Source: Candidatus Palauibacter soopunensis
GTDB lineage: Bacteria > Gemmatimonadota > Gemmatimonadetes > Palauibacterales > Palauibacteraceae
Length of the DNA stretch: 64,000 bases
Direction of reading: 5' to 3'
Assembly (NCBI RefSeq): GCF_947581735.1
Contig: NZ_CANPVT010000002.1
Coordinates: 315,511 to 379,510, forward strand
The notes under the pieces are model-generated. The model worked only from the letters and a program-made list of their open reading frames with translations. It had not been told where the DNA came from and did not search any database. Below are positions 38,477 through 49,417 of this stretch, piece after piece. The position numbers were made by a program, and so were the translations under genes. Each line of letters starts with the position of its first letter. Position 1 is the stretch's first letter.

Positions 38477-38542
38477 GCTCCTCGCCCAACGGGCTCGGCG
38501 GCCGTGCCCCGCAGCCGCCCGAAGCGTTCCCGCGGGAACGTT

Positions 38543-41500
38543 TCAGCTTTCCAGCGCGTGAATCCAGTCGGTGAACACCCGCTCGCCGGCTGGGCGCAGC
38601 CCGGCGTGGCGACCCGATTCGAGGAGCGCTTCGACGAAGGCCTGTGCGTACCCGCGGCTGAAGGCGATCAGGACGGCGTCGTCCCGCCAGGTGACGACTT
38701 GGCAGGGGACATGGAGGACGGGCCCCTGGGTCAGGAATGGGCGCGCGCGCACCGGGTTGAGGAGGTCGAGATCGGTGACGCTCTCCAGTACCTCCTGAAC
38801 GGAGTCTCCGAGCAGCGCGAGCCAGCAGTGCGAGTCGGTCGTGTCCGTGTAATGCGGACTGTCCGGCATGGCCGGGGGTGCGCCCGGTCCGACGTGCCAG
38901 ATCGAGGCTTGGGTCCCGTTCATGCGGTTGATCATCAGCCCGTCGCGGACCTGGACGTCTCCCGGCGTGCGCGGCACGTCGAGGCCGAATGGCTGCACGG
39001 CCCGGATGTTGCGGTGCTGGGCGTCCCAGCGTGTGCGGTGGCTGAGGTCGATGAGGCAGGCCTGGCGCAGGGCGTCGGTGGAGGCGCGGTCGGTTTCGTA
39101 GTCGAGCACCACGTTCCAGCCGGCCCGGCGCTCGGTGCGGGCGGGCGCGGCGTCGAAGCGGACCGGAGACCGGCGATGGGCCGCGGGCGCCGGCTGCGAT
39201 GACGCCTCGCCGGACCGGCGCGGGCGCCCTTCGGGGGCGATCCGCAGGCGCTGCCCCTTCGGATCGTAGAAGTGGGGAGGCACCACGGTGGCGGTCGAAC
39301 GCACGGTCCGCCGGCCCGGCGACTCGTACAGGTCGAGCGAACGGCCCCGCTCCGCCAACCGGTCCTCGACGAGCGCGAGTCCGTACTGCCAGCCCAGCGT
39401 CGCGCTGTGCCGCGTCGTGCAGACGAAGCCGGCGATCCGCTCCCCGTCCACGACGAGCGCCCCGTCCTCGGGCCGGTGGGCGATGTCGCCGTCGTCGATC
39501 CGGAGTCCGACGAGCTTCAGCCGCCCGGCCTGTTCCTCGCAGTGGCGCAGCGCCGCGGCGCCCACCTTGCCGGAGGCCAGGTCTTCGCGGTCCCAGAGCC
39601 AGCCCATGCCGATGTCGAGGAGCGTGACGCGCTGCTCGGACTCCGTCCCGATGATCACGTGTCCCTTCTCGGCCCGCAGGCAGTTCTGCGCTTCCAGCCC
39701 GAACGGCCGGATGCCGTACTCCGCCCCGGCCTCCCACAACAGATCCCACACGTACCGGGCACAGCTCGCGCGCACGTGCAGTTCATAGGACAACTCGCCG
39801 ACGAACCCGAGGCGCAGGCACCGCGCCGCCACGCCGTCTCCCACCTCGATCTCGCGGCAGCCGAGGTACGGGAACGCCTCGTCCGAGAGGTCCGCGCCCG
39901 TGATCTTCTCCAGCACCCGCCGCGCGTTCGGCCCGGCCACGTTGATGGAGGCGAGGGCGTCGGTGAGGTTCACGAGGTTGTAGTCCCACCCGTCGTACCG
40001 CGTGTGGAAACGGAGCCACTCGACCGTGGTCCCCGCCCGGTTCGAACTCGTCGTGAAGTAGAACTCGTCCTCGCCCGTCCGCACGACGACGCCGTCGTCG
40101 ATGATGTTGCCCGTGTCGTTGCACATCGCCGAGTACGCGCAGCGGCCGGGCCGGGCCCGCGTCATGTCGGAGACGTAGGCGCGTTGGAGGGCGCGCAGGG
40201 CGTCGGGTCCCCAGATCCGGAACTTTCCCAGCGGCGAGCTGTCGAGGAGGCCGACGTTCTCGCGCACGTTGCGGATCTCTTCCAGGCACTCCCGATCCTC
40301 GCTGAAGTAGCGCGCCCGCTGCCACGGCCCCGCCCGTCGGAACACGGCGCCCCGCGACGCCTGGTCGTCGTGGAGCGGGGTCCGCTTGTGGATGTCGTGG
40401 TTCGGGCCGGCGAGCGTCGCGAGGGAGGGGGGGATGACCGGCGGGCGCACCGTGGTGGCGGCGAAGCTGCCCACCGGCCGCCCCGCGATCTCGGCCATCG
40501 CCATGGCGAGGTTCTGGCCCGGCACACGGTACTGCCCGGGGCCGAGTCCGAAGTTCCCGAAGCGCTTCGCGAGTTCGGGCACGTCGAAGGCGTAGGCGGC
40601 GCACTGGGCCGCGTTCTTCCACGTGCCGTCCTCGTCGAAATCGAGGAACGCCTTGCGGCCGGGGGCGAGACGCCGTCCGGCGGCGGGTCCGCGGACGATC
40701 GAGGAGCCCCGGGCGGGCCCCGGCAGGTCGGCCAGGCGCGCGCGCTCCCGGGTCAGCGCCCCCGCGACGTCGGTGCCACACGCCGCGGCGGCCTCGAGCC
40801 CGGCGATCCGTCCGGAACCGGTGAGCGCCTCGAGATCGGTGAGCCGAAGAACACCGCCCGCGGCGAACACGTCGGGCGGGAGGCGCTCGAGCTCGAAGGT
40901 CCGGGTGCGTTCGCCGTGGCGGAACCGCGCGCCGGCGCATGAGAGGACCCCGATGTCCGGTTGCCGCCCCGCGCTCGCCACCAGCAGGTCGCACGCCACG
41001 CGCAGCGCGTCGCCCGCCCCGCCACCCCCGGCGCCGCTCCCCGCCCGCGCCGCCACCTCTACGCCCCGCACCCGGCCTCGCCCACGCACCCGGGTCGCGG
41101 CCCATCCCGGCCGGAAGTCGATCCCCGCGGCCGAGAGGGCGTCTACCAGCTCCGGGTCGTGCCCTTCGCGCCGGGCGTCGGCGACGACGCGGATGTCCAC
41201 ACCCAAGGCCGCCAGATCCGCGGCCGCCTCGAGCCCGAGGTCGTCGCCCACGCTGAAGGCGGCGGCCGCGCCCGGCCGGACGCCATAGGTCCGCGCGAGC
41301 CGAATCGCCGTATCGACCTGCATCACGCCCGGACGGTCGTTGTGCTCGAACACGAGCGGCCGCTCGATCGATCCCGTCGCGACCACGATCGTCCGCGCGC
41401 GACACTCCCAATGCACTTCCCGTGGTCCCCGGTCGAACGGCATCGTCGCGGAGCCGCCCGCGGTGGCGCCGCCGGCCGCGCGCTCCGCCCCGCCGTGCTG

Positions 41501-42259
41501 AAAGCCCGTGAGCAGGTTCTCGCCCCAGATCCCTGTGACCGGCGCGTGCCGGACCACGCGGATCGAGTCCGTCCCTTCGACCTGCGTGACGAGTGCCGAT
41601 ACGTCATCGGCCAGCGGGCGACCGTCCCGCACGCGCCAGTCGAGGTGCCCACCGAGCCACGGCCGCCGCTCGAACAGGCACACCCGCAGGCCGCGCCGTC
41701 CGGCCTCGAGCGCCGCCGACAGCCCCGCCGGGCCGCCGCCGACCACCGCCACGTCCGCGTGCAGATAGCGCTCCGCCCGCTCCCCCGCGTCCGCCCGCTC
41801 CGCCGCGTCCAGCCTCAACACGCCCAGGCCGGCCAGCGCCCGCATCCGCTCCTGGAAGAACCGGGCGGCCCACGCGGGCCGGTGGAAGAGCCGGTAGTAG
41901 AAACCCGCCGGCATGAACCGGTCGAGCCGGTCCAGGAAACCGAACGCGTCGAACCGCGGGTCGCCGCGCACGTTCTGCGCTCCGACCTCCATCCCCTCGC
42001 GCAGCGGCGCCGTCCCCGCCGACTGGTTCGGCACGCCGTCGATCGAGACGAGCTGGCTCGACCCTTCCCCCTCCAGGTCGTACAGGCCCCGTGGCCGGTG
42101 ATACTCGAAGCTCCGGCCGAAGGTGCGGATCCCCGCCCCCCAGAGGGCCGAGGCGACCGTGTCTCCCTCGAACCCCTCCAGCGCGCGCCCGCACCAGCGG
42201 AAATCGAGCGGGCGCGAACGGTCGAGGCGCTCCGTCGAAGAGGGCGGCAGCCGGCTCAC
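38543..42259 (-). CDS. soxA: Heterotetrameric sarcosine oxidase alpha subunit (SoxA), continuing in-frame into a ~210-aa gamma-subunit (SoxG)-like region with no intervening stop.
   Basis: N-terminal [2Fe-2S]-like region, VAVVGGGPAGLSAALEA NAD/FAD fold, GcvT-like folate domain, SoxA-like …VVPPHFYDPKG C-terminus, then RRSPV… SoxG-like sequence; 1238 aa in total (typical SoxA ~1000 plus SoxG ~200). Confidence 0.75.
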   Translation of the reverse strand: MSRLPPSSTERLDRSRPLDFRWCGRALEGFEGDTVASALWGAGIRTFGRSFEYHRPRGLYDLEGEGSSQLVSIDGVPNQSAGTAPLREGMEVGAQNVRGDPRFDAFGFLDRLDRFMPAGFYYRLFHRPAWAARFFQERMRALAGLGVLRLDAAERADAGERAERYLHADVAVVGGGPAGLSAALEAGRRGLRVCLFERRPWLGGHLDWRVRDGRPLADDVSALVTQVEGTDSIRVVRHAPVTGIWGENLLTGFQHGGAERAAGGATAGGSATMPFDRGPREVHWECRARTIVVATGSIERPLVFEHNDRPGVMQVDTAIRLARTYGVRPGAAAAFSVGDDLGLEAAADLAALGVDIRVVADARREGHDPELVDALSAAGIDFRPGWAATRVRGRGRVRGVEVAARAGSGAGGGGAGDALRVACDLLVASAGRQPDIGVLSCAGARFRHGERTRTFELERLPPDVFAAGGVLRLTDLEALTGSGRIAGLEAAAACGTDVAGALTRERARLADLPGPARGSSIVRGPAAGRRLAPGRKAFLDFDEDGTWKNAAQCAAYAFDVPELAKRFGNFGLGPGQYRVPGQNLAMAMAEIAGRPVGSFAATTVRPPVIPPSLATLAGPNHDIHKRTPLHDDQASRGAVFRRAGPWQRARYFSEDRECLEEIRNVRENVGLLDSSPLGKFRIWGPDALRALQRAYVSDMTRARPGRCAYSAMCNDTGNIIDDGVVVRTGEDEFYFTTSSNRAGTTVEWLRFHTRYDGWDYNLVNLTDALASINVAGPNARRVLEKITGADLSDEAFPYLGCREIEVGDGVAARCLRLGFVGELSYELHVRASCARYVWDLLWEAGAEYGIRPFGLEAQNCLRAEKGHVIIGTESEQRVTLLDIGMGWLWDREDLASGKVGAAALRHCEEQAGRLKLVGLRIDDGDIAHRPEDGALVVDGERIAGFVCTTRHSATLGWQYGLALVEDRLAERGRSLDLYESPGRRTVRSTATVVPPHFYDPKGQRLRIAPEGRPRRSGEASSQPAPAAHRRSPVRFDAAPARTERRAGWNVVLDYETDRASTDALRQACLIDLSHRTRWDAQHRNIRAVQPFGLDVPRTPGDVQVRDGLMINRMNGTQASIWHVGPGAPPAMPDSPHYTDTTDSHCWLALLGDSVQEVLESVTDLDLLNPVRARPFLTQGPVLHVPCQVVTWRDDAVLIAFSRGYAQAFVEALLESGRHAGLRPAGERVFTDWIHALES

Positions 42260-48259: not shown

Positions 48260-49417
48260 ATGATCCGCGGTGCGACCGGTCGCTACGAGACAAGCGCGGC
48301 AGGCGGCGAGACGGTCCGGGCGTTCGTCCCCGCGCCCCTTCCGCCGCAGCCGGACCTGGACCTGAAGACCCTGCTGGACCCGCTGGAGAAGGCGTCGCTG
48401 GCCCTCGGCAGTTTGGACAGCTTCGCCTCCCTCCTTTCCGATCCCCACATTTTCCTGTTCAGCTACGTCCGCAAGGAAGCGGTCCTCTCTTCCCAGATCG
48501 AGGGCACCCAGTCCTCGCTCTCGGATCTGTTTCTCTTCGAACTCGAACCGAAAACAGGTGCTCCGTTCGACGAGATCACAGAGGTGTCCAACTATGTGGC
48601 CGCCCTGGAACACGGGCTGCGGCGGATGCGGGAGGGGTTCCCGTTCTCCAACCGTCTCATTCGCGAAATTCACGCCACTCTGCTCCGTAGCGGAAGAGGC
48701 AACAAACAGGCTCCGGGCGAGTTCAGGCGCTCCCAGAACTGGATCGGCGGCACCCGGCCCGGAAACGCGAGTTTCGTCCCGCCCCCCGCGCATGCGGTCG
48801 AAGAATGCATGTCGCGGCTGGAACGTTTCCTGCACTTTCCCGCTGCGGGCCTGTCCCCGATCCTCAGGTCCGGTCTGGCCCACGTTCAGTTCGAGACGAT
48901 TCATCCCTTCCTCGATGGGAACGGGCGCGTGGGCCGACTGCTGATCACCCTCCTGCTCTGCCACGATGGCGTACTGCGAGAGCCGCTGCTGTACCCGAGC
49001 CTCTATCTGAAGCAACATCGCGATACGTACTACGCCCTCCTCGATGAGGTCCGGCGGACCGGCGATTGGGAGCGGTGGCTCACGTTCTTCCTCGACGGTG
49101 TGGCGGAGACCGCGACCGACGCCGTCGCCAAGGCGCAGCGCATGCAGGAGCGGTTCGAGGAAGACCGCGCGCGGGTCGAGCGTTCCGGGCGGGCGGCGGG
49201 TTCGAGATTGCGTATTCACCAGGCGTTCCGGGACCGTCCGGTCCGAGACCTCCCCGGCCTCGTCCGGCAAACCGAGTTGTCCTTCCCGACCGTGTCATCC
49301 GCGGTGAAGGCACTGGAGCGGTTCGGGGTCGTCCGGGAGATTACGGGCAAGGCACGCGACCGTGTCTTCGCCTACGAGCCGTATCTGGCCATTCTCAACG
49401 AGGGGACGGAACCATGA
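48260..49417 (+). CDS. fic: Fic family protein (class II, with an intramolecular SxxxEG inhibitory helix).
   Basis: HPFLDGNGRVGRLL FIC motif; upstream SSQIEGT inhibitory motif; preceded by an AT-rich leader. Confidence 0.9.
   Translation: MIRGATGRYETSAAGGETVRAFVPAPLPPQPDLDLKTLLDPLEKASLALGSLDSFASLLSDPHIFLFSYVRKEAVLSSQIEGTQSSLSDLFLFELEPKTGAPFDEITEVSNYVAALEHGLRRMREGFPFSNRLIREIHATLLRSGRGNKQAPGEFRRSQNWIGGTRPGNASFVPPPAHAVEECMSRLERFLHFPAAGLSPILRSGLAHVQFETIHPFLDGNGRVGRLLITLLLCHDGVLREPLLYPSLYLKQHRDTYYALLDEVRRTGDWERWLTFFLDGVAETATDAVAKAQRMQERFEEDRARVERSGRAAGSRLRIHQAFRDRPVRDLPGLVRQTELSFPTVSSAVKALERFGVVREITGKARDRVFAYEPYLAILNEGTEP

Follow-up and report, generated by a model that had tools for sequence, protein, structure and literature searches.

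The question raised by this locus is whether two subunits of a sarcosine-oxidase-type flavoenzyme, which are encoded by separate genes in other Gemmatimonadota, are here made as one chain. In a stretch of 64,000 nucleotides from Candidatus Palauibacter soopunensis (contig NZ_CANPVT010000002.1, positions 315,511 to 379,510; hereafter the window), a gene for an alpha subunit of the SoxBDAG/MgdABCD type does not end where such genes usually do, but continues in frame into a region resembling a gamma subunit. Candidatus Palauibacter is a sponge-associated member of the Gemmatimonadota. An earlier note on this DNA had placed two explanations side by side, a natural alpha-gamma fusion and a soxG with a start of its own that overlaps soxA at the 3' end. 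The evidence presented below argues for a genuine, lineage-specific alpha-gamma gene fusion in Candidatus Palauibacter, with the origin proposed further on and a three-chain SoxBDAG/MgdABCD-type enzyme as its product, a reading to which we assign a probability of roughly 0.88.

The gene consists of one open reading frame (ORF) with a GTG start and 1238 encoded residues (Table 1). Both the ORF and the junction were read directly, bearing out the earlier statement that the soxA frame runs past its usual C-terminus to give a polypeptide of this length. The alpha-type part reaches ...VVPPHFYDPKGQRLR at residue 1006, its C-terminus being FYDPKGQRLR, and in all unfused relatives the alpha stop comes one residue beyond the equivalent RLR. 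Past residue 1006 the frame stays open for 232 further codons, rather than the ~210 first estimated, passing through IAPEGRPRRSGEASSQPAPAAH and then RRSPVRF. The SoxBDAG/MgdABCD class is made of four separate polypeptides; here alpha and gamma form a single ORF.

As judged by Pfam, the alpha part has the complete domain set of an alpha subunit (Fer2_4-like, Rossmann, SO_alpha_A3, GcvT-like and barrel domains), with GCV_T at residues 629-887 and GCV_T_C at residues 915-999. Residues 8-1006 align end to end with the TIGR01372 soxA model (8-995/996) at 657.7 bits, below its cut-off of 1164, and the same part matches SoxA chains of known structure (1vrq_A, E 1.5e-93; 2gag_A, E 1.9e-92). The NCBI entry for the exact protein reads '2Fe-2S iron-sulfur cluster-binding protein [Candidatus Palauibacter soopunensis]'. 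The Fer2_4-like N-terminal domain (~100 residues) contains a single cysteine, C23, and so cannot ligate a 2Fe-2S cluster; the name is thus an artefact of the domain fold.

In other members of the phylum the same sequence is divided between two genes, the two ORFs lying in different frames in 9/9 other Gemmatimonadota or Longimicrobiales loci. At locus L001 an alpha protein of 979 aa (69% identical) ends in FYDPDGKRLRV-TGA, and the next gene, encoding 235 aa, starts within ATGATGA in a different frame. Its product, which opens with MTEPSPAAKRRSAVRFDA, shares 57% identity with window residues 1021-1232 (BLASTP E 5e-82). The closest unfused relative, at L003, has an alpha protein of 966 aa (73% identical) that ends in RLRM* and is followed, with a GTGA overlap and again in a different frame, by a gene encoding 229 aa. 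This locus is syntenic with the window, the order being DAO, beta, delta, alpha, [gamma], a convergent Cys/Met pyridoxal phosphate (PLP) enzyme and a CocE/NonD hydrolase. The free gamma proteins of L001 and L003 begin with a methionine and 9-17 aa before RRSxVxF, and among free gammas in general RRSP is preceded by an N-terminal tail of 9-25 residues, in whose place the window has the linker; within the window linker, the segment SQPAPAAH aligns with TEPSPAAK of the L001 protein. The window has a G+C content of ~71%, so that long chance ORFs are common in it, and we estimate, from a calculation of our own rather than from a tool, that a stop-free run of the length of the extension would arise by chance with a probability of ~1-2%. 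Homology of the extension to a free protein excludes such a chance origin, and the G+C content at third codon positions (GC3) of 0.91 marks the fused ORF as clearly coding.

A free gamma subunit might still be produced from this gene, in addition to the fused chain or in place of it, through internal initiation near the junction or proteolysis of the linker, in which case the mature enzyme would remain four-chain. The linker is predicted to be disordered and is rich in Arg, Pro and Ala, so that it could be accessible to proteases, and a free gamma is the ancestral state. Set against this, no in-frame ATG, GTG or TTG occurs between codons 994 and 1049, and the in-frame GTG codons nearest the junction (986, 992, 993, 1050 and 1051) are not preceded by a Shine-Dalgarno-like motif. 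A start at codon 1050 would lie past, and so remove, the nearly invariant RRSPxxF with which the gamma family begins. These absences make internal initiation unlikely. As the alpha frame also lacks a stop, the separately initiated soxG overlapping soxA was not upheld, and the region near 39180-39260, named in the earlier note as the place to look, contains neither an internal ribosome-binding site nor a start. Taking both routes together, we consider a free gamma unlikely, although the linker could be cleaved and the polypeptide may then not stay intact, a point that detracts from the fusion reading.

That the extension is a gamma subunit is suggested by its position and its fold. Its free homologues start in the alpha stop region (L001, L003, L021, L023-L028), and in the window the sequence follows alpha in frame. 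As in SoxG, the fold is of the GcvT folate-binding type, of ~190-200 residues, with no C-terminal barrel. More than 270 stand-alone homologues of 205-250 aa were found, a few of which are named 'sarcosine oxidase subunit gamma SoxG' by NCBI.

A series of results weighs against this assignment. Scanned alone, the last 231 aa match neither PF04268 nor TIGR01375 at E<=10, nor any NCBIfam model, and over the whole protein PF04268 and TIGR01375 match only residues 758-847, which belong to the alpha GcvT domain and not to the extension. At E<=1 PF04268 matches 0/30 family members, stand-alone relatives included; as a control, the canonical SoxG of B. vietnamiensis scores 90.2 bits with this model. 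A profile of the gamma family searched against PDB sequences returned no SoxG and no meaningful match, and hhalign gave a non-significant probability of 10% against canonical SoxG and of ~10% against the gamma-position protein of a Neorhizobium locus. A link to SoxG is therefore not demonstrable by hhalign at the sequence level, which made a comparison of folds necessary. The top structural matches of the domain are the GcvT domains of alpha and of T-protein, not SoxG, so that 'gamma' is here a positional and fold assignment. The proposal that the extension resembles SoxG, which had been tied to a match with PF04268, consequently does not hold in its literal form, while the free orthologue at the gamma position and the GcvT-type fold do support it; alignment to SoxA worked for the alpha part, and hhalign to canonical SoxG gave nothing significant.

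The domain does match PF01571 GCV_T (37.8-38.2 bits, above the cut-off of 25.6; E 1.3e-9 to 1.7e-9), as do 14/30 of its relatives. It might instead be an additional GcvT-like folate-binding domain with a separate role, for example in regulation or as a second folate site, in a family that has no true SoxG. We judge this improbable. Canonical SoxG has the same fold and matches the same part of the GCV_T profile (93-214, against 130-221 for the window domain), which makes the distinction one of degree. In addition, the free homologue always sits at the gamma position, overlapping the alpha stop, with no other gamma candidate in those operons; its size (~210-235 aa) and missing C-terminal barrel match SoxG (Foldseek TM, the template modelling score, of 0.68 normalised to 2gag_C); and some free homologues are called SoxG by NCBI.

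The fused arrangement is conserved throughout the lineage. All 19 protein clusters of 77-100% identity recovered from NCBI, ENA, JGI and Logan assemblies are 1220-1254 aa long and cover the whole query, and the next relatives beyond them show at most 73% identity, measure ~965-1070 aa and cover 81% of it. When one genome per GTDB species was surveyed, followed by an ORF check, the fused ORF was present in 18/18 genomes that are named Palauibacter or are close to it by identity, several of the records being titled complete chromosomes; they include P. irciniicola, denitrificans, rhopaloidicola and ramosifaciens, and others labelled no further than Gemmatimonadota (76-86% identical). A neighbour-joining tree built from the alpha parts places the fused proteins of the Palauibacter clade in one group, whose sister is the L003 protein. 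No segment of the fused clade is less conserved than the linker, which is represented by 28 sequences of 18, 19, 22 or 24 residues in which the frame is always kept (A 27%, P 22%, G 12%, R 10%, S 8%), and GC3 is 0.83-1.0 through it. An AlphaFold model of residues 620-1238 (619 residues; overall predicted local distance difference test score, pLDDT, 83.9; predicted template modelling score, pTM, 0.76) gives pLDDT <50 at residues 996-1020, in keeping with a linker predicted to be disordered. The comparison with orthologous loci that had been called for thus separates 18 related genomes with a fused gene from nine others with separate genes, and together with the in-frame linkers, the monophyly and the syntenic unfused neighbour it supports the natural fusion.

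Assembly error cannot explain a pattern of 18 fused genomes and 28 in-frame linkers: although the genes of unfused relatives overlap by 4 nt in different frames, so that a single 1-nt indel at the ATGA/GTGA overlap would suffice to join them artificially, and although at least one related assembly encodes an obviously frameshifted copy (P0020; 1103 aa, 94% identical, on a 3.4-Mb contig) with its C-terminal ~40 residues out of frame, the identical fused frame in independently assembled genomes and in all 19 clusters, the at least three linker lengths, a linker of ~22 aa that is unlike simple read-through from one indel in a recent ancestor, and coding-like GC3 across it render a sequencing or assembly artefact exceedingly improbable. 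The P0020 tail comes either from a frameshift error or from the gene being a pseudogene in that genome.

Fusions of the same two parts also occur outside the Palauibacter clade. P0035 (1268 aa) and P0037 (1293 aa) are alpha-gamma fusions with unrelated, longer linkers that nest separately among unfused proteins in the neighbour-joining tree, and P0241 is a junction-spanning fragment (43% identity) whose linker is likewise unrelated. Their recurrence suggests that the join is structurally tolerated and easily made. All three are single sequences, and P0035 and P0037 could be assembly artefacts. P0241 was the one new junction fragment when a junction-spanning query was searched against a set of 1.84 billion representatives, where the matches listed were mainly free gammas and the Palauibacter proteins themselves were absent; among those listed by a word-indexed search there were only junction-spanning fragments (P0390-P0394) and no new distant fusions.

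The genes upstream of the fused gene encode the other subunits (Table 1). The gene order beta-delta-alpha of the earlier note was recovered with Pfam and NCBIfam, whereas the ATGA overlaps it described between successive genes hold only roughly: the delta gene, lying between beta and alpha, begins 7 nt after the beta stop, and its own stop overlaps the alpha GTG start as GTGA. The beta gene holds the same position in loci L001-L004. Its start is that of the longest ORF, and the true one may lie slightly downstream (the L002 orthologue has 420 aa). Its best model is TIGR01373 soxB (E 1.5e-112; residues 36-418 to 21-403/407), where a score of 376.5 bits below the cut-off of 529.45 fits a divergent member. 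The second DAO-family gene is probably co-transcribed with the beta-delta-alpha operon. Its product is only weakly similar to known oxidases, scoring 76.7 bits with N-methyltryptophan oxidase and 67.7 bits with monomeric sarcosine oxidase, both well short of the cut-offs, and a 435-aa DAO gene occupies the equivalent position in L002, L003 and L004 and not in L001, which has an N-methylglutamate context.

Table 1. Coordinates of the fused gene, its parts and other features. Positions are those of the window unless a locus is named.
Feature	Coordinates	Strand	Evidence or remark
Fused alpha-gamma ORF	38543..42259	-	Direct reading of the DNA
Fer2_4-like N-terminal domain	42259-41960	-	Single cysteine
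Alpha part, residues 1-1006	39242..42259	-	Fer2_4-like N-terminus, Rossmann/Pyr_redox_2, SO_alpha_A3, GCV_T folate-binding domain, GCV_T_C barrel (Pfam)
Linker, residues 1007-1028 (IAPEGRPRRSGEASSQPAPAAH)	39176..39241	-	No stop or in-frame start (DNA read)
Gamma-equivalent domain, residues 1029-1238	38546..39175	-	GcvT-type folate-binding-domain fold, no C-terminal barrel
Stop codon of fused ORF	38543-38545	-	
Delta subunit (SoxD/MgdB-type), 111 aa	42256..42591	-	PF04267 SoxD, 50.8 bits (cut-off 27)
Beta subunit (SoxB/MgdA-type oxidoreductase dependent on flavin adenine dinucleotide), 433 aa	42599..43900	-	Pfam DAO, E 3.3e-65
Second DAO-family flavoprotein, 439 aa	43910..45229	-	Pfam DAO, E 5.7e-46; directly upstream of beta gene
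Class-A-beta-lactamase-like protein, 482 aa	45234-46682	-	NCBIfam class A beta-lactamase, 209.7 bits (cut-off 200)
Fic/DOC-family gene	48260-49417	+	Between M20 deacylase and amidase genes
Perfect palindrome, 16 nt	38525-38540		CGTTCCCGCGGGAACG
Stand-alone gamma-position gene, L001	L001:10940-11647		
Stand-alone gamma-position gene, L003	L003:10898-11587		
Gamma-position gene, L029 (Neorhizobium plasmid)	L029:5888-6544		Annotated 'hypothetical protein'
Gamma-position gene, L031 (Paracoccus plasmid)	L031:11849-12460		Annotated 'hypothetical protein'

With alpha and beta both scoring far below the cut-offs of their models (657.7 against 1164 and 376.5 against 529 bits), the identity 'sarcosine oxidase' is not established, which also counts against part of the overall reading; the best plasmid-borne proteobacterial relatives of the SoxA type reach no more than 35% identity to the alpha part by tblastn. 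Domain content points to oxidative N-demethylation with tetrahydrofolate-dependent one-carbon capture. We would commit to a putative tetrahydrofolate-linked oxidative demethylase of a secondary N-methyl amino acid, with sarcosine and N-methylglutamate as the lead candidates. An N-methylglutamate-type context does occur around unfused homologues with ~69% alpha identity in Longimicrobiales and Gemmatimonadaceae metagenome-assembled genomes, where L001 (12399-18586), L023 and L027 adjoin genes of the glutamine-synthetase-like, ammonium-transporter, Glu_synthase, GXGXG and GATase_6 types. These surroundings have the appearance of the gmaS/mgsABC pattern, apparently an N-methylglutamate (methylamine) pathway cluster in the Gemmatimonadota. 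By tblastn, gmaS-, amt- and mgsA/B/C-like queries from L001 found a counterpart neither within the 64 kb of the window nor in the regions flanking the Palauibacter loci, matching only L001, L023 and L027. A Paracoccus plasmid homologue considered as an Mgd reference was set aside, as it lacks N-methylglutamate-pathway context.

The Palauibacter loci are surrounded by a different set of genes, encoding the second DAO oxidase, a class-A-beta-lactamase-like protein, an ArgE/DapE deacylase, an amidase, CocE/NonD hydrolases and a cystathionine-gamma-synthase-family enzyme. The beta-lactamase model covers residues 47-339/482 of the class-A-like protein, leaving ~140 C-terminal residues unmatched, and the gene lies beside the oxidase operon in L002 as well. 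At the equivalent place in L002, a relative with 87% identity, the M20 deacylase and amidase genes are only ~115 nt apart, so that the Fic/DOC gene separating them in the window looks like a strain-specific insertion. The palindrome CGTTCCCGCGGGAACG falls within the 66 nt that separate the stop of the fused gene from that of the convergent Cys/Met PLP-enzyme gene; although it lacks a T-run, it may act as the stem of a bidirectional terminator. The window is unusually rich in hydrolases of peptides and amides (two CocE/NonD (S15) proteins, a prolyl oligopeptidase, a gamma-glutamyltranspeptidase, an M19 dipeptidase, a carboxylesterase, an amidase, an M20 deacylase and two beta-lactamase-fold proteins), and also encodes two SSF transporters and two Cys/Met PLP enzymes.

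An origin of the fusion may be proposed from these comparisons. In the ancestor, the alpha (soxA/mgdC-type) and gamma (soxG/mgdD-type) genes would have overlapped by 4 nt (ATGA/GTGA) in different frames, a state still seen elsewhere in the Gemmatimonadota. A mutation that changed the frame at the overlap, a net 1-nt deletion or 2-nt insertion, would then have removed the alpha stop and joined the ORFs in the Palauibacter ancestor, and the former N-terminal tail of gamma would have become a flexible Ala/Pro/Gly-rich linker of ~22 residues. The product would be an alpha-gamma chain of ~135 kDa, which together with beta and delta would form a three-chain version of the four-chain SoxBDAG/MgdABCD flavoenzyme. 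In the solved heterotetrameric sarcosine oxidase, oxidation takes place in beta and folate capture in alpha, and gamma is structural. By analogy, beta would oxidise a secondary N-methyl amino acid (presumably the substrate is sarcosine, N-methylglutamate or a related N-methyl amine), the GcvT-like domain of alpha would capture the one-carbon unit on tetrahydrofolate, and gamma would be a non-catalytic structural module packed on alpha. Tethering gamma may fix a 1:1 stoichiometry and ease assembly.

The fusion gives a well-known class of enzymes a new architecture, a modest variation involving no new mechanism, and public annotation misses it. No description of an alpha-gamma fusion was found in the literature, and the description of the Palauibacterales makes no mention of this enzyme or of sarcosine or methylamine metabolism. 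The fusion serves as a 'Rosetta-stone' link, indicating that alpha has a true partner, its gamma subunit, in the unannotated ~220-aa product of the gene that follows soxA-like genes in Gemmatimonadota. The 'hypothetical proteins' at the gamma position of proteobacterial soxBDA loci may, by the same argument, be gamma subunits too. Genes so annotated follow soxB-soxD-soxA on a Neorhizobium and a Paracoccus plasmid (Table 1), and the Neorhizobium protein matches GCV_T and not PF04268; gamma subunits hence seem under-recognised well beyond the Gemmatimonadota. Two annotation problems are exposed as well, the failure of PF04268 and TIGR01375 to recognise this gamma family and a '2Fe-2S' name given to a protein whose domain has one cysteine. 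The fusion further suggests that the distance from the C-terminus of alpha to the N-terminus of gamma can be bridged by ~20 residues, and it offers a ready-made single-chain alpha-gamma design for expressing multi-subunit enzymes of this type.

A broader proposition joins these strands, and is offered tentatively, as less likely true than not. According to it, the Gemmatimonadota would possess a distinct, uncharacterised SoxBDAG/MgdABCD branch with a gamma family missed by the SoxG models; at least three to four independent alpha-gamma fusions would have taken place (in the Palauibacter clade, P0035, P0037 and P0241); and in sponge-associated Palauibacter the fused enzyme, always accompanied by the second DAO oxidase and set among genes for peptidases, amidases and deacylases, would have as its substrate an N-methylated amine that is neither sarcosine nor N-methylglutamate.

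Among known systems, MgdABCD has a four-component architecture homologous to that of SoxBDAG, and annotation often confuses the two (PMC13236597). The unfused relatives with ~69% alpha identity resemble MgdABCD systems in having gmaS/mgsABC-type neighbours, whereas the Palauibacter loci, judged by gene context, have peptidases, an amidase, a deacylase and the second DAO oxidase instead. In heterotetrameric sarcosine oxidase (TSOX; SoxBDAG of Corynebacterium sp. U-96 and Stenotrophomonas (Pseudomonas) maltophilia; PDB 1x31/1vrq and 2gag) alpha and gamma are two chains, whereas in the window they are one, joined by a 22-residue linker; window alpha and beta also lie well below the soxA/soxB NCBIfam cut-offs, and gamma goes unrecognised by PF04268 and TIGR01375. 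The stand-alone gamma-position proteins of Gemmatimonadota are 50-61% identical to the window domain along its whole length and share with it the invariant motifs RRSPxxF, DLSHR, RMNxTQ, TTDxHC, QGP and RGY; they differ in that each is a free protein of 205-250 aa whose own start codon lies within the alpha stop region, while the window domain has no start and is covalently attached to alpha. The partners joined in dimethylglycine oxidase (1pj5) and dimethylglycine dehydrogenase (4pab, 5l46) are different ones, beta-like and GcvT, with no gamma, no delta and no second GcvT-like domain. These enzymes nevertheless belong to the same superfamily, their GcvT domains are among the top structural matches of the window gamma domain, and they too carry in one polypeptide modules that are separate in TSOX, a flavin dehydrogenase and a GcvT-like folate domain.

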